Counted from the stretch's first letter, positions 14,897 through 62,600 are shown. The stretch: DNA of 64,000 bases from Balanoglossus misakiensis (GCA_040954595.2 CM082578.2:1160831-1224830); one strand, 5' to 3'. Notes: a model not told the origin generated them from the sequence alone. Made by a program: numbers and translations.

Positions 14897-14930
14897 GGAA
14901 AACACACAGCAAATGGACTCCTTTTTTATC

Positions 14931-36600: not shown

Positions 36601-36710
36601 GTCCGATGGGACCAAAATTCAAAATGGCGGCAGTGCATGTGTGATCGATCGTGATCACTTCTGCTTGCAACTCCGTACTGGCATTATTTTGACAAAAAGA
36701 CTTCCTGAAA

Positions 36711-36884: not shown

Positions 36885-37276
36885 TCACTTGGTGATTTTT
36901 GGAATATCAATACTTTGTGTGTGTTTGCGGTGATTTTTTGTTTGTCTTTATTCATAATCTCAATATTGTGTGCGTGCTTGCCTTGAGCGTGTTTCTGGTA
37001 GTGAGGCGAGTTTCGAATTTGAGACTGATCTCATGGTTTCTGGTAGCGTCGCTACGTGTTCCCTACACATACGCGCTCACACTCGCTGACGTTTACTCCA
37101 CACACAAAAAAGCAAAGCATTTATAATAGTTACATTTTTAGACATGTCATGAATTTTATTCAGCCAATAAAAATGTAACTGTGGCTGTACATGTGGTGTC
37201 TTTTTGATTCATATCTTAATGCTTTCACAAGAGTTTCACACATCACTCTACTAGTTTTAGAAGTACCATGAGTGAT

Positions 37277-37532
37277 GACTCTCACTTTTTGTTTCACTTT
37301 TGACATTAAAGAGGGTGTGACTGCAGAGAAGTGTGAAATACAAAATATGTTGTAAGGGAATATTGTATGTTAGTTGGTCAGTTGGTTAGTGAACTGGGGA
37401 ACTTGGTTTCGGTTAGTAGGTTAGTTGGTTAATGCAAACATTCCTTGATTCCCTTACAACATATTTTGTATTTGATCTCTCTACAGTCACAACCTCTTTG
37501 ACGTCATAAGTGAAACAAAAAGTGAGAGTCAC
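37277..37532. repeat. Foldback MITE inside the ISL2EU-like element
   Basis: gactctcactttttgtttcactt...aaatatgttgtaagggaat versus attcccttacaacatattt...aagtgaaacaaaaagtgagagtc, with a ttggttag-rich centre. Confidence 0.65.
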
Positions 37533-37603
37533 TTGTCTTGTAAAATAAAAGTAAACAATACTAAGCTATACCCTGGTTATCCTTTTCACTATCAACAACA
37601 GTT

Positions 37604-40450
37604 CTATGTACAACTGACAACAATGTTAGTTACAATAAAATCCTCATAAAATGTAGAAAGTTTAGCTTCAGTTGTTTTCCCAAACAATTCATCGAAATAT
37701 ATCCTCTCTATTGAAATGGCTTTTCTTGTGAATAACACAAAATCACACCATTGCAGTTTACAAGTAGCAAGTTGCATTTGTATTTGGGTATACCATTTTG
37801 ATGTCCTCCTCAAACACACTTTGCCATCTACATCCAAAAATACATGGTATTTGGGAACTCTAGGCTTGATATATCACATGGGAATATATTGCGGTGTTTG
37901 CTGGAACATTTGATTTCACACATTTAAAGCTGGCAATGATAGTGATTTTACTAGCTATATTGGAGAATCTGTATCAGAAGCTGATATTGATTTTATGTCA
38001 TCACTGACAGCTGATCAAAGAGATTATGAGGATTGGTATTTGTATAGACAAGGGAGTGTTACTGCCAGTATTGCACATGATATCCTTCACATGAAAGAAA
38101 CTCGGGATTTGAATGACTACATAGTCCAAAAAATTATGTCTGGCAGTCACAGGACAATACCTTCAACCCACATTGATTGTGGTATTAAACATGAACCTGT
38201 TGCTAAACATTTATATCATGAGCAATACAAAAAGTTGCACCGGAAAGTGAAATTTCAAGATGTTGGCTTAGTCATCAGTTCTGACAAGCCATATCTTAGT
38301 TCAAGTCCTGATGGGAGGGTATCATGGGAGGACATCAAATGGCACCTGGATAATAGTTGGACACAGTTGGTCTTGGTGTGTCAGGTTGAGACTTATCCTT
38401 TCTAATGTCAAGCTCATCTATTTCCATAGGAGTGGACTCTTTGCGGGGTTTATCCCACTTACAGGGAACATCAGTACTAACTTGAATATTTCTGTCTTTG
38501 TGGCGTCTATCGAAGTCGTTGATGCTAAACAACAATGCAACACAATGTTTGCATGTTCCATGCTCACTGTAAAAAAAATTCAGATACATGGTAAATGTTA
38601 ACGCATGATTGCAGCTTTTTTGTTTATGCCTCTCTGCAGTGACTGTCAAATGAAAACTGAGGTATTCAAACCTAAAACGTCAATGCATCAAATGGAGAAT
38701 GAAATCATATTAACTATTTTCAAATATTATCTAATTTTGCAAATCCTGATTTACAGTCCTCAACATCACTTTAAATTAGTCAACAGATACTGTTGGAAAA
38801 ACATAGACAATTCTGTCAGACTCTACTGACAGTTTTCTCATCCAAACACACAAATAAAGCAAACCGAACTAAAAAACAAATGTCAAAATACATGTATAAC
38901 CATGGTTATTTCAACCCACCATTTCTATGTACCTAGTCACACTGGTAGAACTAAAAGCCACGGTGGATTAAAATGATAAAATTTATATAAAAATTAAAGC
39001 TGCAAGCAGCATTGTCCGGGCCCAAGCTCTATTATCTGATCTGATGCTGATATAGTGTTAAGTAGGTCAAAGGTCACCCGAGGTCACCCAACATTTGGGC
39101 AAAATATTTTGACCCCATACTGGTCCATGTATAACAAAAACAAAACCTCTAGGTCTATTGGTTCATCATTAATTAGGTATGTACATATTTAATGAGGTCA
39201 GCAGAGGTCAAAGGGGTCATGAAAAGTAGCAAAATTTTTTGATCACATACAAATCCACACACATCAAAAACCAAACTTATAGCCCTATTGGTTAGCCTGG
39301 AATTAGATATGCAGAAAAATGATGCATCAAAAGTAGGTCAAAGGTCATTGCCAAAATTACCAAAATATTAATAGCTTATTCTTGTCATATGATGATTCAT
39401 ATCCATAAAAAGAATTTCTGTGCTATCAATTTTTAGGCTAGAAAGGGAATTTTTACTTTTTAATCAGTTTTTCACAAAATCCAATATGGCCGCCATAATC
39501 TTCGACCAATCACATTCCCCTTTACAAACTTGATAGACATCTGTTTAATGACCACACACACCAAATCTTGTGACTCGGTTATCGCCGGTTCTTGAGAAGA
39601 AGATTTTTGAAATTTTACTAGGGTTTTTCGAAAATCCAATATGGCCGCCATAATCTTGGACCAATCACAATGATCTTCGCAAACTTGATAGACATCAGTT
39701 AAGTGACCACATACCCCAAACCCCATGTCTCGGTTGTTACCGGTTCTGGAGAAGAAGATTTTTGAAAATTAAGCCAGATTTCAGAAAAAAAAGTGTAGCA
39801 AAAAAACTGCAACATTGACAGCATAATTTCCAATTACAAAAATGATGGGTAGAAGGTAGACTACCTGCACACCAAATTTGAAGTCGATCTGACTTGTAGT
39901 TTCTGAGATCTGAGATTTGCATTTTTTCAGAAAATCCAATATGGCCGCCAGGTCACGTGACTAATTAAAAATTCAAGGGTTCAATGCACGACTACTCATT
40001 GACCTTGACCACTGTAGCAAGTTTCAGAAGTGTACCTGCAGCGGTGTCTGAGATCTAGAGCGACAAAGAATTGACAGAAGAATAAAGAAAGAAAGAAAGA
40101 AAGAAAGAAAAACCCCAACGAAACCAATAGGGCCCAAGCGCTGGTATGCGCTTGGGCCCTAAAAATACTTACGCAACACAATTACAGCCTCAGAAGAGAA
40201 TGGAGGTCGCTGACCCACTCGGTGATCGTCGCCGGATCAGGCAAAGTGATGTAGAATTGCTTTTGGCTGGGTCGCGATTGTCTGCTACCGTCCGCCTTTT
40301 TTTGCTCGAAATTTCCTGGTCACCAGGCTCTAGTGGCCGAACGTCCAGTTCTATAGCTAACTCCACTACCTGAATTAGTCTATCTTTCCAGGTATTACAA
40401 CAAGTTATACCTCTTTCCGACAAAACTTTCTCAGGTCAGGCACTTATGTA
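37604..40450 (-). pseudogene. SWIM + YqaJ (lambda-exonuclease) gene remnant, spliced, internally inverted and interrupted
   Basis: N-terminal piece at 40190-40423 (-); CKHCVALL...STDVPCKW at 38335-38575 (-); TADQ..W...R.GSVTAS..GIKHEP..GLVIS..PYLSSSPDG at 37995-38325 (+); EIKC and WYTQIQMQLATCKLQWCDFV at 37604-37920 (-). Confidence 0.8.
38992..40160 (-). mobile_element. Single HINE copy with both ends (internally deleted), inserted in an intron of the YqaJ remnant
   Basis: Tail aattaaagctgc at 38992, head ending gggccct at 40160, unrelated A-rich flanks on both sides, next to a minus-strand gtaagt donor. Confidence 0.85.
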
Positions 40451-43400
40451 AACATGACCTCATTCAGGACCGGAAGTGCAGTGATCCCAACTCGCACGCC
40501 CTCAGGCGACAAGAGTCTATGAACTTTCTACTTTATTGAGAACTCGGAACCCGCGAATTAAAGCTGCGAGCAGCATTGTCAGGCCCAAGCGCTGATCTTG
40601 AATTATATATGCACAGTATGAATGAGAAGAAACAGAATTTTTTATCGGATGTATTATCTCATGACATAACAAGGATGTGTGTATTTTTGCTGCTGAAATA
40701 AGGTGAAGTAGGTCAAAGGTCACCTGAGGTCACCCACAATTTGGGCAATTTTTTTTACCCATACTGGTCCATGTCCAACAAAAACCAAAACTCTAGCTCT
40801 ATTGGTTCGCCTGTAATTAGGTATGTGCATATTTAATGAGGTCAGCAGATGTTACAGGTGACCCAAAAATGTGGCTTTACATTTTGGTCCCATCCTACCA
40901 AATGCCATGGCTGTATCTGCTCTGGATGCTTAGATATGCGAAAGTAGGTCAAAGGTCACCAGAGGTCACCCAACATTTGGGCAAAAAATTTTGATCCCAT
41001 ACTGGTCCATGTCCAACAAAAACCAAACCTCTAGCTCTATTGGTTCGCCTGTAATTAGCTATGCACATAATTAATGAGGTCAGCTGAGGTCAAAGGGGTC
41101 ATGAAAAGTAGCAAAATATTTTGATCACACACTAATCCACATTCATCAAAAACCAAACGTCTAGCCCTATAGGTTAGCCTGGAATTAGATATGCAGAAAT
41201 AATAATGCGTGATAAGTAGGTCAAAGGTCATGTGAAAAATCGCCAAAAAATTGTATAATATTTTAGTCACATGACGATTGATATCCATAAAAAGAATTTG
41301 TATGCTATCAATTTTTAGACTAGAAAAAGGAATTTCAATTTTTCACTGCTTTTTACAAAATCCAATATGGCCGCCATAATCTTCGACCAATCACAATGCT
41401 CTTTGCAAACTTGATAGACATCAGTGTTGTGACCATACTCCCCGAATCTTGCGACTCAGTTATCGCCCGTTCTGGAGAAGAAGATTTTTGCAGTTTTACT
41501 ATGGTTTTTCGAAAATCCAATATGGCCGCCATAATCTTCGACCAATCACAATGCTTCTTATCAAACTTGATAGACATCAGTTAGGTGACCACATACCCCA
41601 AACCGCGTGACTCGGTTATCACCGGTTCTGGAGAAGAAGATTTTTGAAATTTAAGCCAGATTTCAGAAATAAAATTGTAGCAAAAAAACTGCAACACTGT
41701 AGCAAAATTTCCAATTACAAAAATGATGGGTAGAAGGTAGTCTACCTGCATGCCAAATTTGAAGACGATCTGACTTGTAGTTTCTGAGATCTGAGATTTG
41801 AATTTTTTCAGAAAATCCAATATGGCTGCCAGGTCACGTGACTAATTAAGTATTCACAAGTCACTGCACATCTACTCATAGACCTTGACCACTGTACCAA
41901 GTTTGAGCAGTGTACCTGCTGTAGTTTCAGAGATTTAGTTGGCCGAAGAATTGACACAAGAATAAAGAAAGAATTAAAGCTGCGAGCAGCATTGTCGGGC
42001 CCAAGCGCTGATCTTGAATTATATATGCACAGTGTGAATGAGAAGAAACAGAATTTTCTATCGGATGTATTATCTCATGACATAACAAGGATGTGTGTAT
42101 TTTTGCTGCTGAAATAGGGTGAAGTAGGTCAAAGGTCACCTGAGGTCACCTAACATTTGGGCAAATTTTTTTGACCCATACTGGTCCATGTCCAACAAAA
42201 ACCAAAACTCTAGCTCTATTGGTTCGTCTGTAATTAGGTATGTGCATATTTAATGAGGTCAGCAGATGTCACAGGTGACCCAAAAATGTGGCTTTACATT
42301 TTGGTCCCATCCTACCAAATGCCATGGCTGTATCTGCTCTGGATGCTGAGATATGCGAAAGTAGGTCAAAGGTCACCAGAGGTCACCCAACATTTGGACA
42401 AAAATTTTTGATCCCATACTGGTCCATGTCCAACAAAAACCAAACCTCTAGCTCTATTGGTTCGCCTGTAATTAGCTATGCACATAATTAATGAGGTCAG
42501 CAGAGGTCAAAGGGGTCATGAAAAGTAGCAAAATATTTTGATCACACACTAATCCACATGCATCAAAAACCAAAAGTCTAGCCCTATAGGTTAGCCTGGA
42601 ATTAGATATGCAGAAATAATAACGCGTGATAAGTAGGTCAAAGGTCATGTGAAAAATCGCCAAAAATTTGTAACATATTTTAGTCATATGATGATTGATA
42701 TCCATGAAAAGAATTTGTATACTGTCAATTTTTAGACTAGGAAAAGGAATTTCAATTTTTCACTGCTTTTTACAAAATCCAATATGGCCGCCATAATCTT
42801 CGACCAATCACAATGTTCTTTGCAATCTTGCTAGACATCAGTATTGTGACCATACTCCCTGAATCTTGCGACTCAGTTATCGCCTATTCTGGAGAAGAAG
42901 ATTTTTGCAGTTTTACTATGGTTTTTCGAAAATCCAATATGGCCGCCATAATCTTCGACCAATCACAATGCTTCTTATCAAACTTGATAGACATCAGTTA
43001 GGTGACCACATACCCCAAACCGCGTCACTCGGTTATCACCGGTTCTGGAGAAGAAGATTTTTGAAATTTAAGCCAGATTTCAGAAAAAAAATTGTAGCAA
43101 AAAAACTGCAACATTTACAGCAAAATATCCAATTACAAAAATGATGGGTAGAAGGTAGACTACCTGCACACCAAATTTGAAGTCGATCTGACTTGTAGTT
43201 TCTGAGATCTGAGATTTGCATTTTTTCAGAAAATCCAATATGGCCGCCATGTCACGTGACTAATTAAAAATTCAAGAGTTCAATGCACGACGACCCATTG
43301 ACCTTGACCTCTGTAGCAAGTTTGAGAAGTGTACCTGCAGCGGTGTCTGAGATCTAGAGTGACAAAGAAATGACACAAGAATAAAGAAAGAAAGAAAGAC

Positions 43401-46400
43401 AGAAAAACCCCAACGAAACCAATAGGGCCCAAGCGCTGGTATGCGCTTGGGCCCTAATTAAAGCTGCAAGCAGCATTGTCGGGCCCAAGCGCTGATCCAG
43501 TATTATATATGCACAGTATGAATGAGAAGAAACAGAATGCTCTATCAGGTGTTTTATCTCATGACATAACAAGGACGTATGTATTTTTCCTGCTGAAATA
43601 GAGTAAAGTAGGTCAAAGGTCACCTGAGGTCACCAAACATTTGGGCAAAATTTATTGACCCATACTGTTCCATGTCCAACAATAACTAAAACTCTAGTTC
43701 TATTGGTTCGCCTGTAATTAGGTATGTGCATATTTAATGAGGTCAGCAGGTGTCACAGGTGACTCAAAAATTTGGCTTTACATTTTGGTCCCATCCTGTC
43801 AAATGCCAAGGCTGTATCTGCCCTGGATGCTGAGATATGCGAAAGTAGGTCAAAGGTCACCAAAGGTCACCCAATATTTGGGCAACAAATTTTGACCCCA
43901 TATTGGTCCATGTCCAACAAAAACCAAACCTCTAGCTCTATTGCTTCGCCTGTAATTAGCTATGCACATAATTAATGAGGTCAGCAGAGGTCAAAGGGGT
44001 CATGAAAAGTAGCAAAATATTTTGATCACACACTAATCCACATGCATCAAAAACCAAAAGTCTAGCCCTATAGGTTAGCCTGGAATTAGATATGCTGAAA
44101 TAATAACGCGTGATAAGTAGGTCAAAGGTCATGTGAAAAATCGTCAAAAAATTGTAACATATTTTAGTCACATGATGATTGATATCCATAAAAAGAATTG
44201 CTATGCTATCAATTTTTAGACTAGAAAAAGGAATTTCAATTTTTCACTGCGTTTTACAAAATCTAATATGGCCGCCATAATCTTCGACCAATCACAATGC
44301 TCTTTGCAAACTTGATAGACATCAGTGTAGTGACCGTACTACCCAAATCTTGCCACTCAGTCATCGCCCGTTCTGGAGAATAAGATTTTTGGAGTTTAAC
44401 TGTGTTTTTTTGAAAATCCAATATGGCCGCCATAATCTTCGACCAATCACAATGATCTTCGCAAACTTGATAGACATCAGTTCGGTGACCGCATACCCAA
44501 AACCCCGTGTCTCAGTTATCACCGGTTCTGGAGAAGAAGATTTTTGAAATTTAAGCCAGATTTCAGAAAAACAATTGTAGCAAAAAAACTGCAACATTGA
44601 CAGCAAAATATCCAATTACAAAAATGATGGGTAGAAGGTAGTCTACCTGCATGCCAAATTTGAAGTCGATCTGACTTGTAGTTTCTGAGATCTGAGATTT
44701 GCATTTTTTCAGAAAATCCAATATGGCCGCCAGGTCACGTGACTAATTAAGTATTCACAAGTCACTGCACATCTACTCATTGACCTTGACCACTGTAGCA
44801 AGTTTGAGCAGTGTACCTGCAGTAGTTTCAGAGATTTAGTTGGCCGAAGAATTGACACAAGAATAAAGAATGAAAAATTCCAACGAAACCAATAGGGCCC
44901 AAGCGCTAAAGAAAGAAAGATTAAAGCTGCGAGCAGCATTGTCGGGCCCAAGCGCTGATCTTGAATTATATATGCACAGTATGAATGAGAAGAAACAGAA
45001 TTTTCTATCGGATGTATTATCTCATGACATAACAAGGATGTGTGTATTTTTGCTGCTGAAATAGGGTGAAGTAGGTCAAAGGTCACCTAAGGTCACCCAA
45101 CATTTGGGCAATTTTTTTTTACCCATACTGGTCCATGTCCAACAAAAACCAAAACTCCAGCTCTTTTGGTTCGGATGTAATTAGGTATGTGCATATTTAA
45201 TGAGGTCAGCAGGTGTCACAGGTGACCCAAACATGTGGCTTTACATTCTGGTCCCATCCTACAAATTGCCATGGCTGTATCTGCTCTGGATGCTGAGATA
45301 TGCGAAAGTAGGTCAAAGGTCACCAGAGGTCACCAAACATTTGGGCAAAAAAATTTGATCCCATACTGGTCCATGTCCAACAAAAACCAAACCTCTAGCT
45401 CTATTGGTTCGCCTGTAATTAGATATGCACATAATTAATGAGGTCAGCAGAGGTCAAAGGGGTCATGAAAAGTAGCAAAATGTTTTGATCACACACTAAT
45501 CCACATGCATCAAAAACCAAAAGTCTAGCCCTATAGGTTAGCCTGGAATTAGATATGCAGAAATAATAACGCGTGATAAGTAGGTCAAAGGTCATGTGAA
45601 AAATCGCCAAATATTTGTAACATATTTTAGTCATATGATGATTGATATCCATGAAAAGAATTTGTATGCTGTCAATTTTTAGACTAGGAAAAGGAATTTC
45701 AATTTTTCACTGCTTTTTACAAAATCCAATATGGCCGCCATAATCTTCGACCAATCACAATGCTCTTTGCAAACTTGATAGACATCAGTGTTGTGACCAT
45801 AATCCCCGAATCTTGCGACTCAGTTATCGCTCCTTCTGGAGAAGAAGATTTTTGCAGTTTTACTATGGTTTTTCGAAAATCCAATATGGCCGCCATAATC
45901 TTCGACCAATCACAATGCTTCTTATCAATCTTGATAGACATCAGTTAGGTGACCACATACCCCAAACCGCATCACTCGGTTATCACCGGTTCTGGAGAAG
46001 AAGATTTTTGAAATTTAAGCCAGATTTCAGAAAAAAAATTGTAGCAAAAAAGCTGCAACATTGACAGCAAAATATCCAATTACAAAAATGATGGGTAGAA
46101 GGTAGACTACCTGCACACCAAATTTGAAGTCGATCTGACTTGTAGTTTCTGAGATCTGAGATTTGCATTTTTTCAGAAAATCCAATATGGCCGCCATGTC
46201 ACGTGACTAATTAAAAATTCAAGAGTTCAATGCACGACTACCCATTGACCTTGACCACTGTATCAAGTTTGAGAAGTGTACCTGCAGCGGTGTCTGAGAT
46301 CTAGAGCGACAAAGAAATGACACAAGAATAAAGAAAGAAAGAAAGACAGAATTAAAGCTGCAAGCAGCATTGTCCGGGCCCAAGCTCTATTATCTGATCA

Positions 46401-49205
46401 GATTATTAGATATGCACATAAGTAATGAGTAGAAACATAATGCTGTTTTATCCCATGAATTATCAAGGTTATATCTATGTTTGGTGCTGATATAGTGTTA
46501 AGTAGGTCAGAGGTCACCCAGAGGTCACCCACAGTTTGGGCAGAAAATTTTGACCCATAGTGGTCCATGTCCAACAAAAACCAGACCTCTAGCCCTTTTG
46601 GTTAGCCCGGAATTAGGTATGCACATAAATAATGAGTTAAGCAGGTGTCACAGGTGACCCAAAACTTTGGCTTTTCATTATGGCCCCATACCTCCAAACG
46701 CCAAGGCTGTATCTGCTGTGGATGTCGAGATATGCAAAAGTAGGTCAAAGGTCACCCGAGGTCACCCAACATTTGGGAAATTTTTTTGACCCAATACTGG
46801 TCAATGTCCAACAGAAACCAAGCCTCTAGGTCTATTGGTTCATATGTAATTAGGTATGCACATATTTAATGAGGTCAGCAGAGGTCAAAGGGGTCATGAA
46901 AAGTACCAAAATTTTTTGATCACATACAAATCCACATACATCAAAAACCAAACTTATAGCCCTATTGGTTAGCCTGGAATTAGATATGCAGAAAATTGAT
47001 GCGTCAAAAGTAGGTCAAAGGTCATTGCCAAAATTACCAAAATATTTATAGCTTATTCTTGTTATATGATGATTCATATCCATAAAAAGAATTTCTGTGC
47101 TATCAATTTTTAGGCTAGAAAGGGAATTTTTACTTTTTAATCGTTTTTCACAAAATCCAATATGGCCGCCATAATCTTCGACCAATCACATTCCTCTTCG
47201 CAAACTTGATAGACATCTGTGGAATGACCACACACACAAAATCTTGTGACTCGGTTATCGCCGGTTCTCGAAAAGAAGATTTTTGAAATTTTACTAGGGT
47301 TTTTCGAAAATCCAATATGGCCGCCATAATCTTCGACCAATCACAATAATCTTCGCAAACTTGATAGACATCAGTTAGGTGACCAAATACCCCAAACCCC
47401 ATGTCTCGGTTATCACCGGTTCTGGAGAAGAAGATTTTTGAAATTTAAGCCAGATTTCAGAAAAAAAATTGTAGCAAAAAAACTGCAACATTGACAGCAT
47501 AATTTCCAATTACAAAAATATTTGACAGAAGGTAGTCTACCTGCACGCCAAATTTGAAGTCGATCTGACTTGTAGTTTCTGAGATCTGAGATTTGCATTT
47601 TTTCAGAAAATCCAAGATGGCCGCCAGGTCATGTGACTAATTAAAAATTCATGGGTTCAATGCACGACTACTCATTGACCTCGACCACTGTAGCAAGTTT
47701 GAGAACTGTACCTGCAGTGGTGTCTGAGATCTAGAGCGACAAAGAAATGACAGAAGAATAAAGAAAGAAAGAAAGATTAAAGCTGCAAGCAGCATTGTCC
47801 GGGCCCAAGCTCTATTATCTGATCTGATTATTAGATATGCACATAATTAATGAGTAGAAACATAATGCTGTGTTTTATCCCATGAAATATCAAGGTTATA
47901 TCTATATTTGGTGTTGATATAGTTTTAAGTAGGTCAAGGTCACCCAGAGGTCACCCACAATTTGGGCAGAAAATTTTGACCCATAGTGGTCCATGTCCAA
48001 CAAAAACCAGACCTCTAGCCCTTTTGGTTAGCCCGGAATTAGGTATGCACATAAATAATGAGTTAAGCAGGTGTCACAGGTGACCCAAAACTTTGGCTTT
48101 TCATTATGGCCCCATACCTCCAAACGCCAAGGCTGTATCTGCTATGGATGTCGAGATATGCAAAAGTAGGTCAAAGGTCACCCGAGGTCACCCAACATTT
48201 GGGCAAAATATTTTGACCCCATACTGGTCCATGTATAACAAAAACAAAACCTCTAGGTCTATTGGTTCATCGTTAATTAGGTATGTGCATATTTAATGAG
48301 GTCAGCAGAGGTCAAAGGGGTCATGAAAAGTAGCAACATTTTTTGATCACATACAAATCCACATACATCAAAAACCAAACTTATAGCCCCATTGGTTAGC
48401 CTGGAACTAGATATGCAGAAAAATGATGCGTCAAAAGTAGGTCAAAGGTCATTGCCAAAATTACCAAAATATTTATAGCTTATTCTTGGCATATGATGAT
48501 TCATATCCATAAAAAGAATTTCTGTGCTATTAATTTTTAGGCAAGAAAGGGAATTTTTACTTTTTAATCGTTTTTCACAAAATCCAATATGGCCGCCATA
48601 ATCTTCGACCAATCACATTCCTCTTCGCAAACTTGATAGACATCTGTTTACTGACCACACACACCAAATCTTGTGACTCAGTTATCGCCGGTTCTTGAGA
48701 AGAAGATTTTTGAAATTTTACTAGGGTTTTTCGAAGATCCAATATGGCCGCCATAATCTTCGACCAATCACAATGATCTTCGCAAACTTGATAGACCTCA
48801 GTTTGGTGACCACATATCCCAAACCGCGTGACTCGGTTATCGTCGGTTCTGGAGAAGAAGATTTTTGAAATTTTGACCAGATTTCAGAAAAACAACTGTA
48901 GCAAAAAAACTGCAACATTGACAGCAAAATATCCAATTACAAAAATGATGGGCAGAAGGTACACTACCCGCACACCAAATCTGAAGTAAATCTGACATGT
49001 AGTTTCTGAGATCTGAGATTTGCATTTTTTCAGAAAATCCAATATGGCCGCCATGTCACGTGACTAATTTAAAATTCAAGAGTTCAATGCACGACTACCC
49101 ATTGCCCTTGACCACTGTAGCAAGTTTGAGAAGTGTACCTGCAGCGGTGTCTGAGATCTAGAGCGACAAAGAAATGACAGAAGAATAAAGAAAGAAGAAA
49201 GACAG

Positions 49206-49686
49206 AAAAACCCCAACGAAACCAATAGGGCCCAAGCGCTGGTATGCGCTTGGGCCCTAAAAAACCCCAACGAAACCAATAGGGCCCAAGCGCTGGTATG
49301 CGCTTGGGCCCTAAAAACCCCAACGAAACCAATAGGGCCCAAGCGCTGGTATGCGCTTGGGCCCTAAAAAATTCCAACGAAACCAATAGGGCCCAAGCGC
49401 AAGCAAGCGCTTGGGCCCTAAAAAATTCCAACGAAACCAATAGGGCCCAAGCGCTTGCTTGCGCTTGGGCCCTAAAAAACCCCAACGAAACCAATAGGGC
49501 CCAAGCGCTGGCTTGCGCTTGGGCCCTAAAAAACCCCAACGAAACCAATAGGGCCCAAGCGCTTGCTTGCGCTTGGGCCCTAAAAACCCCAGTAATACCA
49601 ATAGGGCACAAGCCTGCTTGGCTTGTGCCCTAAAAAAACACAGTAAAACCAATAGGGCACAAGCGCCTGAGGGCGCTTGGTCCCCT
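49206..49686 (-). repeat. Stack of 9 HINE 5' hairpin heads (7 modern gggcccaagc, 2 older gggcacaagc)
   Basis: Units end at 49258, 49312, 49365, 49419, 49473, 49527, 49581, 49631, 49686. Confidence 0.92.
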
Positions 49687-49724
49687 AATCAAAAGCGGTT
49701 AATAACGGTCAGTCAACTCACGTC

Positions 49725-52700
49725 TACTAACTCTTCTTATGTGAAAGGATGCGTAAGACTACAATAAAACTCAAAGGGCCTCTCTTCAATGTTAGTCATC
49801 ATACCCTTCCACCCTGTGATTTTGATGAACACTTTTCCCCCCAGCTTTATAATTCATTTTGTGTTTCCCATCTAAATGTCAGATCATTAAACAGAAACGT
49901 TGATGCCTTAAAATTACTATATGAAGATATTATCAAGTCCAAATTCGCTATCATTGGAATTTCTGAAGTATGGGACCCAAATAACTTAAGTATTTGTAAT
50001 ATGCAAGATTACACATTAGAAGTGAAGTCTCGTGAAGTAGGAAGGGGTGGTGGGGTTGGGGCTTACATACATTCATCAGTAATCTACAAGCTGCTTCGAG
50101 CAAGTGTCAGTCACTCAGAATCACTCTGGATGGAGGTACAGGTTAAAAATACGAAGATAATTATGGGAATAATCTACAGAAAACCTAATACTGATATAAC
50201 AGAATTTCAAATTAGTCTCGTGCAAGTATTAAATGAGTTCAGATGTGACAAAAATAATTGTATTTTAATGGGCGATTTTAATATTGATACTAACATAAGA
50301 CTGACCAACCCCAATATAGATTCATATCTATCCTCCTTGGAATGTATAGGCTTAAGACAGCTGATATCTACCCCAACCAGAGTGACTAGTTCATCTGAAA
50401 CTTTAATTGACCACATCTACACAAAAAATAATCAACGTCCTATTCATGCTGGCACTATAATCACAGATATTTCAGACCATTTCCCTGTGTATACTCTTTT
50501 AGAAAATATTCCTCTAAAATTGCCACAAAAAGAGAAAATTATTTTCAGAAATTTCAAAAACTATAGTCCCTCCCAATTTTACGACGATCTTGAAATCACA
50601 AAATGGGATTCTGTGTACCATTCCTCTGATGCTAATGAGGCTTACAACAATTTTTATTCAGTCTTTAATGAAATTTGTGATAAACATGCACCTATTTCTA
50701 CAAAATCCTATAGTACCAAAAAAAAAAAAAAACCTTGGATCACCAAATCACTTAGAAAATCTATTAACACTAAACATAGGCTATATAACAAATTATATAA
50801 ATCAAAATTTAATAATGCTGTTGCTGTTGATAATTATAAAAAATATCGAAATATTTTATCGGCTTTACTCAGGAAAGCCAAACAGATGTACTATAGCAAT
50901 ATTTTTATACAAAATGAAAATAACACTACTGCAATATGGAAAACAATTAGAGAGATACTTGGAAGCCAAGGTAATGCCAGTCAATCTCTGCCAGATAATC
51001 TGTGTGTTAAGTCTAATGGTAAGGTACGAACCGTAAATAAGAAAACTGACATTGTCAATGAGCTAAATAACTACTTTGTTGGTATTGGTCCAGACCTTGC
51101 TAGTAAAATAAAGTCTAACAATTGCAACTTCAATAATTACCTCAAGGCACCCATCTCAAACTCAATCTTTCTTGCCCCAACAACTCAGTTTGAAATACAA
51201 TAAATTATTTGTAGCCTAGATCCTTATAAAGCTTGTGGCCAAGATCAAATTCCTGCTGGACTTCTTATAGATGGAGCTGCTGTAATATCTAAACCATTAG
51301 AATACATATTCAACCTCTCCTTTCAATAAGGAATATTTCTGAAAGCCCTAAAATCAGCAAAAGTTATACCAAGTTTCAAGAAAGGAACCACTGATGATCC
51401 AGGAAATTACAGACCAATATCAATTTTACCTCTTATAAGCAAAGTCTTAGAAAAAATAGTCAACTGCCATCTTACCAACTTTGTAGAACAATTTAATATT
51501 CTATATGAACATCCGTATGCCTTTCGACAAAAATATAGTACCAAACTCTCTCTGATCAATCTTGTCAATTATCTCATTAAGCAACTTGATGCTGGCAGAA
51601 TTACACTTGGCATTTTCCTTGACTTTTCAAAAGCCTTTGATACCATTGATCATACAATATTACTATCTAAACTCTCTCACTATGGTATACGTGGACGTCC
51701 TCTACAATGGTTTACAGATAATTTAAAAGATAGATGTCAACATGTTTGTGCTGATGGCCATATCTCATCTAGCCATAATATTACATGTGGAGTTCCACAG
51801 GGTTCTGTCCTTGGACCTACTCTATTTTTTATTATTTATTAATGATATAGCCCTTTCAACATCCTTCTTCAACTTTCGGCTGTTTGCTGATGATACAAAT
51901 CTGTCCCATACCTTCCCTGCAAACAAAAGTGATATCAATCTGAACCATGTTGACAGCCAGTTACAGCTAGTACTAGATTGGTGCAATGCCAACAAACTCA
52001 CTATAAATCACCTAAAAATAAATTACATTATTTTCAGAAACCAAAGACGAAAGGTTTCCCATGTTGGTTTTCTCCACATAAATAATATGGTCATAAATGA
52101 GGTAGAAGCTGCATCATTTGTTGGCATTCTCATTGACAGGCATCTTACCTTGTCAAAACATATCCAGATGCTAAACACAATCATCAGAAAGAAAGTTGGC
52201 ATTCTCTTTAAACTCAGACATTTTGTACCTACCCCTATACTTACCTTACTCTACAAATCACTTATCCAACCACATATAACATACAGCCTCGAAGTATGGG
52301 GGTCAACATATCCTTCATATCTCAACCGTATTAGGTTATTACAAAAAATGGCAGTAAGAGCAATAACCTTCAGTGTTTTCACAGCTCATTCAACTCCTTT
52401 ATTCCATAAATTGAAAATCCCTGATATTTTCAAATTACATAAGCTCCGGGTATGCTCCTTCATGTATGATCTTGTAAACAATAATCTTCCACAAAGGCTG
52501 ACAACCTAATGTCAATTACCTCTCCATGATTACAGTACACGCCACAAAAACCAAGGTAATCTCCATATTCCAAGTGTATATACAACAATGGGCTAATTTG
52601 CAATATCTTATAATGGCCCTCTCTTATGGAATTCATTACCAGAACAAATAAAAAACAAAAAATCCCAAAAAACTTTCCGGTACTCGCTCAAACAGATGTA

Positions 52701-54326: not shown

Positions 54327-57300
54327 TAGTGGCCAGTGTCGTGCCCATTAATTTTGAGTGTTTGGTGGGGTCAACCTTTGCGTCAACATTGATTAACCAG
54401 GCCATGCAGAGCTAGTGGCCAGTGTCGTGCCCATTAATTTTGAGTGTTTGGTGGGGTCAACCTTTGCGTCAACATTGATTAGCCAGGCCATGCAGAGCTA
54501 GTGGCCAGTGTCGTGCCCATTAATTTTGAGTGTTTGGTGGGGTCAACCTTTGCGTCAACATTGATTAGCCAGGCCATGCAGAGCTAGTGGCCAGTGTCGT
54601 GCCCATTAATTTTGAGTGTTTGGTGGGGTCAACCTTTGCGTCAACATTGATTAGCCAGGCCAGAGCTTAGTGGCCAGTGTCGTGCCCATCAATTTTGAGT
54701 GTTTGGTGGGGTCAACCTTTGCGTCAACATTGATTAACCAGGCCATGCAGAGCTAGTGGCCAGTGTCGTGCCCATCAATTTTGAGTGTTTGGTGGGGTCA
54801 ACCTTTGCGTCAACATTGATTAACCAGGCCATGCAGAGCTAGTGGCCAGTGTCGTGCCCATCAATTTTGAGTGTTTGGTGGGGTCAACCCTTGCGTCAAC
54901 ATTGATTAGCCAGGCCAGAGCTAGTGGCCAGTGTCGTGCCCATCAATTTTGAGTGTTTGGTGGGGTCAACCCTTGCGTCAACATTGATTAGCCAGGCCAG
55001 AGCTAGTGGCCAGTGTCGTGCCCATCAATTTTGAGTGTTTGGTGGGGTCAACCCTTGCGTCAACATTGATTAGCCAGGCCAGAGCTTAGTGGCCAGTGTC
55101 GTGCCCATCAATTTTGAGTGTTTGGTGGGGTCAACCCTTGCGTCAACCTTGATTAGCCAGGCCATGCAGAGCTAGTGGCCAGTGTCGTGCCCATCAATTT
55201 TGAGTGTTTGGTGGGGTCAACCCTTGCGTCAACCTTGATTAGCCAGGCCATGCAGAGCTAGTGGCCAGTGTCGTGCCCATCAATTTTGAGTGTTTGGTGG
55301 GGTCAACCCTTGCGTCAACCTTGATTAGCCAGGCCATGCAGAGCTAGTGGCCAGTGTCGTGCCCATCAATTTTGAGTGTTTGGTGGGGTCAACCCTTGCG
55401 TCAACCTTGATTAGCCAGGCCATGCAGAGCTAGTGGCCAGTGTCGTGCCCATCAATTTTGAGTGTTTGGTGGGGTCAACCTTTGCGTCAACCTTGATTAG
55501 CCAGGCCATGCAGAGCTAGTGGCCAATGTCGTGCCCATCAATTTTGAGTGTTTGGTGGGGTCAACCTTTGCGTCAACCTTGATTAGCCAGGCCATGCAGA
55601 GCTAGTGGCCAGTGTCGTGCCCATCAATTTTGAGTGTTTGGTGGGGTCAACCTTTGCGTCAACCTTGATTAGCCAGGCCATGCAGAGCTAGTGGCCCGTG
55701 TCGTGCCCATCAATTTTGAGTGTTTGGTGGGGTCAACCTTTGCGTCAACCTTGATTAGCCAGGCAATGCAGAGCTAGTGGCCCGTGTCGTGCCCATCAAT
55801 TTCGAGTGTTTGGTGGGGTCAACCTTTGCGTCAACCTTGATTAGCCAGGCCATGCAGAGCTAGTGGCCAGTGTCGTGCCCATCAATTTCGAGTGTTTGGT
55901 GGGGTCAACCTTTGCGTCAACCTTGATTAGCCAGGCCATGCAGAGCTAGTGGCCAGTGTCGTGCCCATCAATTTTCAGTGTTTGGTGGGGTCAACCTTTG
56001 CGTCAACCTTGATTAGCCAGGCCATGCAGAGCTAGTGGCCAGTGTCGTGCCCATCAATTTTCAGTGTTTGGTGGGGTCAACCTTTGCGTCAACCTTGATT
56101 AGCCAGGCCATGCAGAGCTAGTGGCCAGTGTCGTGCCCATCAATTTTCAGTGTTTGGTGGGGTCAACCTTTGCGTCAACCTTGATTAGCCAGGCCATGCA
56201 GAGCTAGTGGCCAGTGTCGAGCCCATCAATTTTCAGTGTTTGGTGGGGTCAACCTTTGCGTCAACATTGATTAACCAGGCCATGCAGAGCTAGTGGCCAG
56301 TGTCGTGCCCATCAATTTTGAGTGTTTGGTGGGGTCAACCTTTGCGTCAATATTGATTAACCAGGCCATGCAGAGCTAGTGGCCAGTGTCGTGCCCATCA
56401 ATTTTGAGTGTTTGGTGGGGTCAACCTTTGCGTCAACATTGATTAATCTGGCCATGCAGAGCTAGTGGCCAGTGTCGTGCCCATCAATTTTGAGTGTTTG
56501 GTGGGGTCAACCTTTGCGTCAACATTGATTAACTAGGCCATGCAGAGCTAGTGGCCAGTGTCGTGCCCATCAATTTTGAGTGTTTGGTGGGGTCAACCTT
56601 TGCGTCAACATTGATTAGCCAGGCCAGGCAGAGCTAGTGGCCAGTGTCGTGCCCATTAATTTTGAGTGTTTGGTGGGGTCAACCTTTGCGTCAACATTGA
56701 TTCAGCCCGAACGCAACCACCCAACGATGAGGGCGTTTATTGGAAAAAGTCACGTGACTATTTTCAAAATGGTAGCTTATTTATGTTGTTGCGCTAACCT
56801 TCAGAAAACACGGGCGATTTTGTCCGATTGGAGAGTCTTTACCATGAAATGACAACAGTATCGATAAAACTAGAATCGTACGGATATGTTGGCAGATTAT
56901 CGCGCCTTAAGCATGGTGGGATTTGGTTGTAGACGTTTTTTCCCACGATCGACCGTGAATGAAAAACGGAGGTATTGCGATGTTTTTCAAGTTTACCGAC
57001 CCGTATCTCAAGAAATATTGGAGGTTGCACAATAGTCTTCACACCGCAAGTTAGGTAATTTATCAGTCTAAAGCTGTGTTAAATTTGAAGTGTTTCGGAC
57101 GTTTTATATAAAAGTGCTGCACTTTCTCGTGAACCCTTCATTTTCCGGTGAACGCGAGTTATTGTGACATTTCTCAAGTTCACCTATCCGTCTTTTAAGA
57201 AATATTTAAGGTTGCCCGACAATTTTTACATCGCGAGTTAGGTTATTTATCAATCTAACGCTAGGCAAAATTTGAAGTGTTTCAGACGTTTTATAAAAAA

Positions 57301-60300
57301 GTGCGGCGCTTTCTTGTGAACCTTGCACTTTACGTGACACGGCTCGACTTCCGCGTTTCGTGCAGGCACAGCCAGTGTACACGATGTGAAGTGAACTGCG
57401 CGATTTGTTTTGTCTAGTGACCATGGAACGAGCCACACTTTCTTGGATATAATAAAACATTAAATTACTGTAAAACTGTATATGACTCTGTTCCTACAGA
57501 TATATTCCTACGATTTGCAATGGCAATTTTCAGTGCATTATTGCCGATGCTATGGCCGGGTGCTACGGGCACTGTTAGCTCTGCTTGGCTGGGCTGCGTG
57601 TCTTATCACCGCAGACGTACACACAAAGCCCCGGCTGCCACGCAGAGCTACGGGCACTGTGTACATGCACGTATGTCCACGGTTCATCTTGATTGCCACA
57701 GTGATTCATAGTTTGAAGACTTGAGCACAGTGTCAAAAGAAAAGAAATGACTGAAGTTATGTTTATTGAGAACAAGCTTTTGTAATTTGTCTATTCTGAT
57801 ACATAGACTGACCGCGTCCACGATATAGGCACTACGAGCTGTACGACTACGAATGAAATCCTCAACTACCCCCTGTGACTTTGGCCTTCCACTCTCCACA
57901 AACTGTTCAGAACGGGGAGAGAGCAAGGGGAGGCAGTACAAGATTTATACGCTGAAATACAGCGATCATGCTAGCCAATTTCTACACAACGAAAATTTGA
58001 TGATTGCAGACTCTGCTGAGCAACAGTTCGGCGATACAACTCGGCCAAGTACGTGCAATTCTATGAGCTACTCTGAGGCTGTTGCGTCACAATACGGGCT
58101 GAGTTTAAGGAGCTCTTGAGCGAATACCTCTGGGGGTTGCATCATGATTTTTTTAATTTTATTACAAGATATATCGAATTCACTGAAAATGATGTTTAAA
58201 TTTAAAAATTCATTTTTATATAAAAGTGCGGCAGTTCGTAAAAACCCCGAAGTGCGGCGTGTTTTGATTTTAGTTGTTCTTGGGTCACTCCGTAATTCGC
58301 TCATTTTTGCAAAGAAAACATGTTTTTTACCAACAAAAAACATACAGATATGTAGTTTAGATATAATTTTGGCCATGTAATCAGTTTTAGTCATTCAACT
58401 GCCGTCCCTGCTTGTTAATTTGGCATTAAAAAAAGCGCGGGACTTTCGCATGCCATTTCTGGCTGTGTGTACGACAGAACGTTGAGTGCGTCACCAGAAC
58501 TAAAAAACTGGGCAATTAACGGTCAAATGGCTGACCTGCGTTCGGGCTGGATTAGCCAGGCCAGGCAGAGCTAGTGGCCAGTGTCGTGCCCATTAATTTT
58601 GAGTGTTTGGTGGGGTCAACCTTTGCGTCAACATTGATCAACCGGGCCATGCAGAGCTAGTGGCCAGTGTCGTGCCCATCAATTTTGAGTGTTTGGTGGG
58701 GTCAACCCTTGCGTCAACATTGATTAGCCAGTCCAGAGCTAGTGGCCAGTGTCGTGCCCATCAATTTTGAGTGTTTGGTGGAGTCAACCCTTGCGTCAAC
58801 ATTGATTAGCCAGGCCAGAGCTAGTGGCCAGTGTCGTGCCCATCAATTTTGAGTGTTTGGTGGGGTCAACCCTTGCGTCAACATTGATTAGCCAGGCCAG
58901 AGCTAGTGGCCAGTGTCGTGCCCATCAATTTTGAGTGTTTGGTGGGGTCAACCCTTGCGTCAACATTGATTAGCCAGGCCAGAGCTAGTGGCCAGTGTCG
59001 TGCCCATCAATTTTGAGTGTTTGGTGGGGTCAACCCTTGCGTCAACATTGATTAGCCAGGCCAGAGCTAGTGGCCAGTGTCGTGCCCATCAATTTTGATT
59101 GTTTATTGGGGTCAACCCTTGCGTCAACATTGATTAGCCAGGCCAGAGCTAGTGGCCAGTGTCGTGCCCATCAAATTTGATTGTTTATTGGGGTCAACCC
59201 TTGCGTCAACATTGACTAGCCAGGCCAGAGCTAGTGGCCAGTGTCGTGCCCATCAATTTTGAGTGTTTGGTGGGGTCAACCTTTGCGTCAACATTGATTA
59301 GCCAGGCCAGAGCTAGTGGCCAGTGTCGTGCCCATCAATTTTGAGTGTTTGGTGGGGTCAACCCTTGCGTCAACATTGATTAGCCAGGCCAGAGCTTAGT
59401 GGCCAGAGTCGTGCCCATCATATATGAGTGTTTGGTGGGGTCAACCCTTGCGTCAACCTTGATTAGCCAGGCCAGAGCTAGTGGCCAGTGTCGTGCCAAT
59501 CAATTATGAGTGTTTGGTGGGGTCAACCCTTGGGTCAACCTTGATTAGCCAGGCCATGCAGAGCTAGTGGCCAGTGTCGTGCCCATCAAGTTTGAGTGTT
59601 TGGTGGGGTCAACCTTTGCGTCAACCTTGATTAGCCAGGCCATGCAGAGCTAGTGGCCAGTGTCGTGCCCATCAATTTTGAGTGTTTGGTGGGTCAAATT
59701 AGCCAGGCCATGCAGAGCTAGTGGCCAGTGTCGTGCCCATCAATTTTGAGTGTTTGGTGGGGTCAACCCTTGCGTCAACATTGATTAGCCAGGCCAGAGC
59801 TAGTGGCCAGTGTCGTGCCCATCAATTTTGAGTGTTTGGTGGGGTCAACCCTTGCGTCAACATTGATTAGCCAGGCCAGAGCTAGTGGCCAGTGTCGTGC
59901 CCATCAATTTTGAGTGTTTGGTGGGGTCAACCTTTGCGTCAACATTGATTAGCCAGGCCAGAGCTAGTGGCCAGTGTCGTGCCCATCAATTTTGAGTGTT
60001 TGGTGGGGTCAACCCTTGCGTCAACATTGATTAGCCAGGCCATGCAGAGCTAGTGGCCAGTGTCGTGCCCATCAATTTTGAGTGTTTGGTGGGGTCAACC
60101 TTTGCGTCAACATTGATTAGCCAGGCCAGAGCTTAGTGGCCAGTGTCGTGCCCATCATATATGAGTGTTTGGTGGGGTCAACCCTTGCGTCAACCTTGAT
60201 TAGCCAGGCCAGAGCTAGTGGCCAGTGTCGTGCCAATCAATTATGAGTGTTTGGTGGGGTCATCCCTTGCGTCAACCTTGATTAGCCAGGCCATGCAGAG

Positions 60301-62600
60301 CTAGTGGCCAGTGTCGTGCCCATCAATTTTCAGTGTTTGGTGGGGTCAACCTTTGCGTCAACCTTGATTAGCCAGGCCATGCAGAGCTAGTGGCCAGTGT
60401 CGTTCCCATCAATTTTGAGTGTTTGGTGGGGTCAACCTTTGCGTCAACCTTGATTAGCCAGGCCATGCAGAGCTAGTGGCCAGTGTCGTGCCCATCAATT
60501 TTGAGTGTTTGGTGGGGTCAACCTTTGCGTCAACCTTGATTAGCCAGGCCATGCAGAGCTAGTGGCCAGTGTCGTGCCCATCAATTTTGAGTGTTTGGTG
60601 GGGTCAACCTTTGCGTCAACATAGATTAGCCAGGCCAGAGCTAGTGGCCAGTGTCGTGCCCATCAATTTTGAGTGTTTGGTGGGGTCAACCCTTGCGTCA
60701 ACATTGATTAGCCAGGCCAGAGCTTAGTGGCCAGTGTCGTGCCCATCAAGTATGAGTGTTTGGTGGGGTCAACCCTTGCGTCAACCTTGATTAGCCAGGC
60801 CAGAGCTAGTGGCCAGTGTCGTGCCCATCAATTATGAGTGTTTGGTGGGGTCAACCTTTGCGTCAACCTTGATTAGCCAGGCCATGCAGAGCTAGTGGCC
60901 AGTGTCGTGCCCATCAATTTTGAGTGTTTGGTGGGGTCAACCTTTGCGTCAACCTTGATTAGCCAGGCCATGCAGAGCTAGTGGCCAGTGTCGTGCCCAT
61001 CAATTTTGAGTGTTTGGTGGGGTCAACCTTTGCGTCAACCTTGATTAACCAGGCCATGCAGAGCTAGTGGCCAGTGTCGTGCCCATCAATTTTGAGTGTT
61101 TGGTGGGGTCAACCTTTGCGTCAACCTTGATTAACCAGGCCATGCAGAGCTAGTGGCCAGTGTCGTGCCCATCAATTTTGAGTGTTTGGTGGGGTCAACC
61201 TTTGCGTCAACCTTGATTAACCAGGCCATGCAGAGCTAGTGGCCAGTGTCGTGCCCATCAATTTTGAGTGTTTGGTGGGGTCAACCTTTGCGTCAACCTT
61301 GATTAACCAGGCCATGCAGAGCTAGTGGCCAGTGTCGTGCCCATCAATTTTGAGTGTTTGGTGGGGTCAACCTTTGCGTCAACATTGATTAGCAAGGCCA
61401 GAGCTAGTGGCCAGTGTCGTGCCCATCAATTTTGAGTGTTTGGTGGGGTCAACCCTTGCGTCAACATTGATTAGCCAGGCCAGAGCTTAGTGGCCAGTGT
61501 CGTGCCCATCAAGTATGAGTGTTTGGTGGGGTCAACCCTTGCGTCAACCTTGATTAGCCAGGCCAGAGCTAGTGGCCAGTGTCGTGCCCATCAATTATGA
61601 GTGTTTGGTGGGGTCAACCTTTGCGTCAACCTTGATTAGCCAGGCCATGCAGAGCTAGTGGCCAGTGTCGTGCCCATCAATTATGAGTGTTTGGTGGGGT
61701 CAACCTTTGCGTCAACCTTGATTAGCCAGGCCATGCAGAGCTAGTGGCCAGTGTCGTGCCCATCAATTTTGAGTGTTTGGTGGGGTCAACCTTTGCGTCA
61801 ACCTTGATTAGCCAGGCCATGCAGAGCTAGTGGCCAGTGTCGTGCCCATCAATTTTGAGTGTTTGATGGGGTCAACCTTTGCGTCAACCTTGATTAGCCA
61901 GGCCATGCAGAGCTAGTGGCCAGTGTCGTGCCCATCAATTTTGAGTGTTTGGTGGGGTCAACCTTTGCGTCAACCTTGATTAGCCAGGCCATGCAGAGCT
62001 AGTGGCCAGTGTCGTGCCCATCAATTTTGAGTGTTTGGTGGGGTCAACCTTTGCGTAAACCTTGATTAACCAGGCCATGCAGAGCTAGTGGCCAGTGTCG
62101 TGCCCATCAATTTTGAGTGTTTGGTGGGGTCAACCTTTGCGTCAACCTTGATTAACCAGGCCATGCAGAGCTAGTGGCCAGTGTCGTGCCCATCAATTTT
62201 GAGTGTTTGGTGGGGTCAACCTTTGCGTCAACCTTGATTAACCAGGCCATGCAGAGCTAGTGGCCAGTGTCGTGCCCATCAATTTTGAGTGTTTGGTGGG
62301 GTAACCTTTGCGTCAACCTTGATTAACCAGGCCATGCAGAGCTAGTGGCCAGTGTCGTGCCCATCAATTTTGAGTGTTTGGGGGGGTCAACCTTTGCGTC
62401 AACATTGATTAACCAGGCCATGCAGAGCTAGTGGCCAGTGTCGTGCCCATCAATTTTGAGTGTTTGGTGGGGTCAACCTTTGCGTCAACATTGATTAACC
62501 AGGCCATGCAGAGCTAGTGGCCAGTGTCGTGCCCATCAATTTTGAGTGTTTGGTGGGGTCAACCTTTGCGTCAACATTGATTAACCAGGCCATGCAGAGC
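54327..62600 (+). repeat. 86-bp satellite (82/83-bp variants), roughly 75 copies, in two blocks 54327-56702 and 58550-62600
   Basis: Monomer tagtggccagtgtcgtgcccatcaattttgagtgtttggtggggtcaacctttgcgtcaacattgattagccaggccatgcagagc; copy number estimated from length. Confidence 0.97.
56703..58549. mobile_element. 1847-bp non-autonomous TIR element with 4-bp TSD, superfamily unassigned
   Basis: TIR cagcccgaacgca / tgcgttcgggctg; TSD gatt; the empty site cattgattagcc is seen in satellite monomers; internal direct repeats near 57050 and 57237; no convincing ORF. Confidence 0.88.

Follow-up and report, generated by a model that had tools for sequence, protein, structure and literature searches.

The 64,000-nucleotide stretch of the Balanoglossus misakiensis genome analysed here (GCA_040954595.2 CM082578.2:1160831-1224830; hereafter, the window) contains a tandem array of hairpins at 49206-49687, which we interpret as a stack of the 5' ends of HINEs, non-autonomous transposons derived from Helentrons, built by successive insertions of these elements into one another in the same orientation (probability roughly 0.85). 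A 54-bp period with 8.6 copies was detected at 49206-49666 by the tandem-repeat finder, and the array is composed of seven near-identical units (H1-H7; 49206-49582) followed by two diverged ones (49583-49632 and 49633-49687; Table 1). Allowing ≤2 mismatches, the window contains 20 occurrences of the unit core, CCAATAGGGCCCAAGC, compared with 0.03 expected by chance. These units are the 5' ends, or heads, of non-coding elements of ~1.45 kb that are encoded on the minus strand. On the plus strand, each element starts with ATTAAAGCTGC(A/G)AGCAGCATTGTC(C)GGGCCCAAGC, and the window holds 19 modern starts of this kind and one old start. BLAST analysis using three reference copies revealed that elements in the same orientation tile the regions 8120-11535 and 19530-49260.

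The structure of the elements was compared with that of known families, here and below on the basis of the available portions of the papers cited. In HINEs and DINE-1 elements, the left flank is described as containing a 5' subterminal inverted repeat (subTIR), a nearby inverted repeat and a microsatellite, and the remainder as containing central tandem repeats and a 3' subTIR with a palindrome (PMC7492417, PMC4067079); subTIRs of ~11-15 bp located 2-4 nt from the 5' terminus are given as a criterion for HINEs (PMC4067079). In the 5' part of our elements, read on the minus strand, the subterminal repeat GGGCCCAAGCGC lies 2 nt from the end and is followed 6 nt away by its inverted copy, generating a hairpin with a 14-bp stem and a 6-nt loop (-18.7 kcal/mol, z ~-6). 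Behind the hairpin are a 15-nt spacer, T5 and a (CTTT)n microsatellite, so that the microsatellite adjoins the head. The interior contains two internal tandem-repeat blocks, one of which consists of 155 bp x2 and is present in every copy, and the 3' part contains a second subterminal repeat, a short palindrome (GCTGC-TT-GCAGC) and TTTAAT. The 5' end, TA+GGGCCCAAGCGC, has its counterpart near the 3' end in GCGCTTGGGCCC (12/12 in B-type copies), and A-type tails have 11/11 bases in common with CGGGCCCAAGC heads; in the old copy, the repeats likewise agree at 11/11 bases. The palindrome is located 6 nt from the terminus in 19/19 starts; it folds weakly (-2.5 to -3 kcal/mol), no better than shuffled sequences. 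Because this layout agrees with the published one, the 'heads' and 'tails' named in a first-pass annotation, made by a model from the sequence alone, are the true 5' and 3' ends, respectively. Judged from their sequence, the elements are HINEs by every structural criterion tested, including the target site described below. A canonical Helitron (5' TC, a hairpin located 10-12 nt before a 3' CTRR, insertion between A and T) was rejected on the basis of both termini and target: on the plus strand, the elements end with CTAA directly after the hairpin but start with ATTAAAG, and they are flanked by A on both sides, corresponding to a T^T target on the minus strand.

The nesting of the elements was parsed as a bracket string, in which starts open and heads close a pair. 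Between 21796 and 49582, the 17 starts and 17 heads form a valid balanced string with no prefix in deficit, whereas random orders of 17+17 brackets give a valid nesting in only 1/18 of cases. Two closed nests result, the E1 nest and the E7 nest. In the latter, E7 contains E8, which contains E9; E9 holds E10 (a solo copy) and E12; E12 holds E13, E14 and E15; and E15 contains E16, which contains E17. The heads H1 to H7 are thereby assigned to the starts at 47776, 46351, 44920, 40557, 33603, 32330 and 30904, respectively, the same order as had been proposed in the first-pass annotation. A strict time order can be read from the stack only for the chain E7>E8>E9>E12>E15>E16>E17; no such order applies to siblings, for example E10 and E12.

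In the process that we propose, a new copy would insert, in the same orientation, into the preceding copy at the T-run that separates its 5' hairpin from its microsatellite, and each such insertion would displace the host head from the host body. Seven nested copies would then leave seven adjoining heads, the youngest beside the body to which it belongs and the oldest at the far end. Integration would be carried out by the rolling-circle machinery of an autonomous Helentron encoded outside the window, at T^T and without target duplication, with the head-adjacent T-run acting as a preferred landing site and not as one oligo-T site among many.

If the heads were displaced from distant bodies, the variants of the two should correspond, and such a correspondence was found. 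The aligned body ends were classified into a CTAGAGCGAC type, a TTAGTTGGCCG type and a few others, although the copies are mosaic along their length. Bodies of the CTAGAGCGAC type (47776, 46351, 44920 and 32330) are assigned heads with CCCC and TGG-type loops, and bodies of the TTAGTTGGCCG type (40557, 33603 and 30904) are assigned heads with TTGCTT or AAGCAA loops; the TTCC/CCCC diagnostic fits in six of the seven cases, 30904 being the sole exception. These pairings had been noted in the first-pass annotation, and the uninterrupted copies that it cited agree with them (35034 and 38993, CTAGAGCGAC with CCCC/TGGTAT; 26144, TTAGTTGGCCG with TTCC/TTGCGC). In total, 10 solo copies, all within the window, were available for this head/body comparison. 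Loop types match in all six distant heads of the stack, which represents 1 of 20 possible arrangements. For E16, E15 and E1, the solo copy nearest by body has an identical head (distance 0); the E15 body, for example, is 97.3% identical to the solo copy E13, and the heads of both are identical.

The pairwise edit distances between heads were also correlated with the pairwise distances between bodies in all 19 copies. With the last 150 body columns, the last-in-first-out order gave r=0.435, compared with a permutation mean of 0.12 and a value of 0.13 for the first-in-first-out order. The within-stack orders that did as well as last-in-first-out numbered 4/720 with the last 150 columns, 6/720 with the last 60 and 2/720 with the last 400, the floor of this permutation being 2/720 since H2 and H3 are identical. 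When all nine distant heads were permuted without restriction, p was ~0.0008-0.025 depending on the body segment. The last-in-first-out assignment of the earlier reading is, in other words, rarely equalled by permuted assignments (2-6/720 with the last 60-400 columns), and its first-in-first-out counterpart performs poorly.

The insertion sites were examined by delimiting each insert as ATTAAAGC...CCC(G)TA and rejoining the flanks. Eight of the nine interrupted copies rejoin, with nothing lost, to G/A + A5 + (C/T)(C/T)CC, as found in solo copies, and the remaining one, E8, gives A6; no target duplication was seen at the nine nested junctions. Since the inserts are flanked by As, the position of the cut may be denoted A^A, equivalent to T^T on the element strand, and insertion of HINEs into TT or oligo-T without target duplication is the published preference (PMC7492417, PMC4067079). 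A copy outside HINE sequence, E11 (38993-40165), is in line with this generic T^T target: it is a solo copy inserted without duplication in an A8 run of a foreign transposon. The choice of site within the family is much narrower. HINE sequence in the window contains 231 runs of A≥5 and 171 runs of T≥5, and a single copy offers ~20 such runs, including A7 and A8; all of the 18 same-family insertions into HINE sequence are nevertheless located at the edge of the run or microsatellite just before the head, or against a copy lodged there, and 18/18 are in the same orientation. Site choice thus greatly exceeds in specificity what a preference for oligo-T in general would give, and it may reflect recognition of the resident 5' hairpin. 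The foreign transposon, which contains an open reading frame (ORF; 37914-38405) with a YqaJ-like recombinase/exonuclease domain (Pfam PF09588, 9.6e-08), splits a formerly normal E10|E12 junction, CCCTAATTAAAGC; this fits the expected outcome of a later event in a pre-existing nest.

The bodies that lie next to each other belong to different subfamilies (~85% identical). Alignments spanning more than one element never exceed 93% identity, which led us to reject a segmental (higher-order) duplication as the source of the region; the best block is 92.9% identical over 2963 bp. The nearest neighbours of single elements, in contrast, are 94.5-97.2% identical for 17/19 copies, with lower values for E5 (0.783) and Ex (0.919). 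The balanced brackets, the mirrored order of variants, the clean rejoining and the unlikeness of adjacent bodies together support the nesting and last-in-first-out readings, and the earlier proposal that the stack records nesting order across up to 17 kb has held up.

Several observations weigh against this interpretation. In H7, CCCC is present although TTCC would be predicted from its TTAGTTGGCCG-type body, and the copy at 26144 (E4) is the only TTAGTTGGCCG-type solo copy in the window with an intact loop (E14 is truncated), which makes for a thin training set. The signal in the distance comparison becomes weaker away from the head, 66/720 within-stack orders doing as well when whole-body columns are used, and unrestricted permutation with the first 400 body columns gives p=0.10; the statistic and the body segments were, moreover, chosen post hoc, after the data had been seen. 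The number of private substitutions, a proxy for age, does not fall with nesting depth, and the comparisons for the seven-copy chain (rho -0.18, p=0.70) and for 16 copies (rho -0.23, p=0.40) neither support nor contradict the expectation that inner copies are younger. No autonomous Helentron ORF (Rep-helicase-endonuclease) was found in the window, where 11 ORFs of at least 150 aa were listed and seven were scanned against Pfam. The old head at 49583-49632 has no detectable partner start in the window, and the left-hand stack of five heads (Table 1) has only about two candidate starts (10807 and a tail-less copy at ~19530-21554), leaving approximately three orphan heads; there, the nesting model needs deletions or multi-headed composites. 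With these unpaired heads, a stack cannot always be taken as a complete ledger. The outermost parts of the region may nevertheless belong together: GGGCACAAGCG, which is the subterminal repeat at the old 8120 start, matches the outermost head (49633-49687), and on the strength of these 11 shared bases the whole 8120-49687 span may be a single nest.

Orphan heads also speak for a different route, in which ready-made composites (two heads with one body, or body-tail-body dimers) were imported from an earlier nest, the transposase having initiated at an outer head or failed to stop at an inner tail, so that the stack would not be a purely local record. This is the published model for FoHeli copies (Fusarium oxysporum Helitrons) with multiple 5' termini (PMC5148889, Fig. 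7 legend), and the head-to-tail arrangement of E13 and the truncated E14 is also in keeping with it. Each head of the main stack, however, has a variant-matched body in the mirror position, and the best two-element block falls below the identity of single-element neighbours (both values given above). Composite import may explain the orphan heads, but as an account of the main stack we regard it as improbable. We consider equally improbable a local amplification of 5' ends, whether by rolling-circle replication that was partial or aborted or by slippage or unequal exchange of a 54-bp minisatellite unit, in which the heads would not be owned by the distant bodies. The identity of H1, H2 and H3, the regular 54-bp tandem arrangement and the body-less heads of the left stack are what such a process would produce, and for the Helitrons of plant centromeres, PMC7348941 cites an over-amplification of the 5' ends through partial rolling-circle replication. 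It does not account for H4-H7, which differ among themselves and whose order mirrors the body subfamilies (1 of 20 for loop type; 2-6/720 for distance), for the match between the numbers of heads and head-less bodies (17:17, in a valid nesting order) or for the exact rejoining of 8/9 cut copies. Least probable of all is an artefact of assembly of a very high-copy repeat, since mis-joins would not yield balanced brackets, mirrored variants and the exact rejoining of nine cut copies, even though the word depths of 10^4-10^6 in two public sequencing runs indicate that the family is extremely abundant and four public runs over 48900-50100 gave only short unitigs, none of which spans the stack.

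In the proposed stack of self-inserted 5' ends, the hairpin of the heads is conserved as a structure. On the plus strand, the H1-H7 units consist of a run of A4-5, (C/T)(C/T)CCAACGAAACCAATA, a hairpin with a perfect 14-bp stem and a 6-nt loop, and a CCCTA end, and the 15-nt spacer between the A-run and the hairpin is constant in every array unit. Folded as single-stranded DNA, these units reach -18.6 to -18.9 kcal/mol (z -5.8 to -6.5), and 0/200 shuffled sequences were as stable. The stem is preserved by paired changes in three lineages (GGGCCCAAGCGC, CGGGCCCAAGCC and GGGCACAAGCC), with the opposite arm matching in each, and the tail repeat co-varies with the head repeat across these lineages. 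The paired changes, together with the accompanying change of the tail repeat, argue that the hairpin and the subterminal repeat pair are functional. The stems of H4 and H5 are identical and the H4 loop (AAGCAA, plus strand) is the exact reverse complement of the H5 loop (TTGCTT); the difference between these units is a flip of the hairpin loop, as occurs at palindromes. With respect to the landing site, it is possible, though at present doubtful, that the T-run, located 15 nt behind the 5' hairpin, serves as a recognized landing pad, and that Helentron machinery bound to the resident 5' end directs both the position and the orientation of incoming copies.

The first-pass annotation had described the stack as CRISPR-looking (clustered regularly interspaced short palindromic repeats). 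Its regular, palindromic appearance is real and is the sole feature in common with a CRISPR array; the likeness is otherwise superficial. The repeated unit here makes up 49 of the 54 bases, the remainder being the A-run, and the same head unit also terminates every dispersed copy of the 1.45-kb transposon. A CRISPR array, in which unique spacers of similar length separate the repeats in a prokaryotic or phage setting, was rejected for 49206-49687 because the units abut without spacers and the neighbours are eukaryotic transposons, including an adjoining non-long-terminal-repeat retrotransposon (LINE). An Rfam search of 46000-50000 gave no match at gathering scores.

Among characterized families, the elements resemble most closely Cg_HINE of the Pacific oyster, DINE-1 of Drosophila and HINE-Mo of a mite, which likewise possess a 5' subterminal repeat with an adjacent inverted copy, a left-flank microsatellite, central satellite-like repeats of ~155 bp, and a 3' subterminal repeat followed by a short palindrome, and which are non-coding, are inserted at T-rich or TT sites without duplication and are present in very high copy number. 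They differ in the length of the 5' stem, which is long (14 bp) in our elements, and ordered, site-specific nesting behind the 5' hairpin is not described in the available portions of PMC7492417 and PMC4067079. As a flank motif, GGGCCCAAGC is absent from the supplementary files of PMC7492417 (one match lies inside an array sequence), and the family therefore does not appear to be among the eleven families listed there. Searches of the literature for the repeat motifs as printed strings gave unrelated primer matches only, and the head motif had 0 matches in the metagenome collection. A 19-mer of the internal 155-bp repeat, AAATCCAATATGGCCGCCA, which is found at three sites per element (e.g. 47143-47446), was found at 122 metagenome loci (L001-L122; >122 contigs). 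These loci have only ~30-42 bases in common with the element (11 weak BLAST rows) and were rejected as element copies for this reason; AAATCCAATATGGCCGCCA may be a short conserved motif common to other animal genomes, or its occurrence may reflect chance and host contamination.

Stacked ends of Helitron-type elements have been reported in other systems. In the available portions of PMC5148889 and PMC13342296, FoHeli elements are described as having acquired multiple 5' termini, up to five, via self-insertion, and they share with our array the presence of several short 5' terminal segments in tandem before one body and insertion close behind another 5' end. As that model predicts, the tandem 5' segments can each be traced to a separate copy here (17:17, in mirrored order), apart from the orphan heads of the left stack. 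The two systems differ in that the stacked termini of Fusarium are found mostly on mobile composite copies, the self-insertion step being inferred, whereas in our window all the interrupted bodies are retained, seven levels of nesting lie inside older layers, and the heads can be matched to bodies; in addition, the family described here is a non-autonomous animal Helentron derivative with microsatellite and satellite repeats. Arrays of truncated Helitrons in plant centromeres (PMC7348941, PMC7492417) also contain head-to-tail runs in which one end is over-represented, but those are explained as concatemers formed from one donor, whereas in our case subfamilies that are ~85% identical are neighbours and the end counts are balanced. 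In the oyster, truncated or tandemized Helitron parts inserted within other elements are mentioned in a review (PMC12628747, available portion). Word searches of the open-access literature returned no account of HINEs nested in order at a specific site with heads matched to bodies, although one may exist elsewhere. The locus is an unusually deep, clean and intact example of a known process and provides direct support for the self-insertion route.

The coordinates of the elements and heads are summarized in Table 1. Within E12, a 12-nt remnant of the E12 microsatellite is present at 44908-44919. The head of E14 ends in the middle of the hairpin (...GGGCCCAAGCGCT) and is followed by AAAGAAAGAAAG and then by the next element start (44887-44919); E14 is a 5'-truncated copy lying against the remnant of the host microsatellite. 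In the E1 nest, E4 is rearranged internally, containing two arms of ~170 bp (27164-27331 and 27452-27623) that are inverted copies of each other with 96% identity and that make this copy ~470 bp longer. E5 (28135-29307), inside E1, has 14% private substitutions, compared with ~1% in its neighbours, and is probably a member of a different subfamily rather than an older insertion. Further to the left, the element starting at 10807 breaks off at 11535, short of its head-proximal end, where it is interrupted by ~8 kb of unrelated DNA (11536-19529). To the right of this DNA lies the tail-less copy, in which the first internal block is repeated in four to five additional, diverged versions (19530-20220). 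Directly to the right of the outermost head is the LINE (49731-52509, plus strand), which has broken frames and contains endonuclease/exonuclease/phosphatase (PF03372, 1.5e-10) and reverse transcriptase (PF00078, 8.4e-21) domains. An 8.3-kb satellite array with an 86-bp unit and higher-order periods of 172 and 258 bp was detected at 54327-62602 by the tandem-repeat finder.

Table 1. Heads, element bodies and associated features of the nested HINE region, with body type, head variant and agreement between the two where assigned
Feature	Position	Strand	Description	Basis
H1 head	49206-49259	-	head of E17	sequence
H2 head	49260-49313	-	body E16; CTAGAGCGAC; CCCC, TGGTAT loop; fits	sequence
H3 head	49314-49366	-	body E15; CTAGAGCGAC; CCCC, TGGTAT loop; fits	sequence
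H4 head	49367-49420	-	body E12; TTAGTTGGCCG; TTCC, AAGCAA loop; fits	sequence
H5 head	49421-49474	-	body E9; TTAGTTGGCCG; TTCC, TTGCTT loop; fits	sequence
H6 head	49475-49528	-	body E8; CTAGAGCGAC; CCCC, TGGCTT loop; fits	sequence
H7 head	49529-49582	-	body E7; TTAGTTGGCCG; TTGCTT loop fits, CCCC does not	sequence
Two older diverged heads	49583-49632, 49633-49687	-	GGGCACAAGC stems; folds of -16.3 and -13.9 kcal/mol	
E17	47776-49259	-	innermost, uninterrupted, owns H1; 1-1483 aligned to reference copy, 95.5%	
E16 body	46351-47775	-	cut at ...AAAG by E17; head H2	
E15 body	44920-46350	-	cut at ...ACAGA; head H3	
E14	43457-44907	-	inside E12; head cut off mid-hairpin	
E13	41973-43456	-	complete, inside E12	
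E12 body	40557-41972	-	TTAGTTGGCCG type; head H4 (TTCC, loop AAGCAA)	
Foreign transposon, ~4 kb	36517-40556	.	terminal inverted repeats CGCGGGTTCCGAG; AATT at both flanks; holds E11	
E10	35034-36516	-	complete solo copy inside E9; CTAGAGCGAC body, CCCC/TGGTAT head	
E9 body	33603-35033	-	TTAGTTGGCCG type; head H5 (TTCC, loop TTGCTT)	
E8 body	32330-33602	-	CTAGAGCGAC type; head H6 (CCCC, loop TGGCTT)	
E7 body	30904-32329	-	TTAGTTGGCCG type; head H7 17.2 kb away (loop TTGCTT, CCCC)	
E1 nest	21796-30900	-	E1 holds E2, E3 (with E4 inside) and E5 (with E6 inside); closes at ~30900	
E1	21796-23225, head unit ~30847-30900	-		starts/heads parse, BLAST
Small head stacks of E1 nest	28028-28134, 30741-30900	-		sequence, repeat finder
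Left-hand stack	21504-21795	-	five heads; microsatellite remnant between third and fourth	
Old outermost element	8120-9320	-	identity to modern copies 72-77%; interrupted at 9320, within its (GAA)n microsatellite	

This locus shows the origin of stacked Helitron-type 5' ends with the interrupted bodies retained, a route that elsewhere has only been inferred. It also carries a warning for annotation, as a regular array of palindromes in a eukaryotic assembly can consist of transposon ends and not of CRISPR-like or satellite sequences. If the pattern is genome-wide, head stacks could be used to order bursts of subfamily activity without a molecular clock and could help explain the build-up of large arrays of elements in the same orientation. 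If the landing-pad reading is true, HINE loci would grow like tree rings, with head stacks forming an ordered record of subfamily activity, and this self-homing would offer the genome a general way of producing arrays rich in Helitrons as well as hairpin minisatellites.

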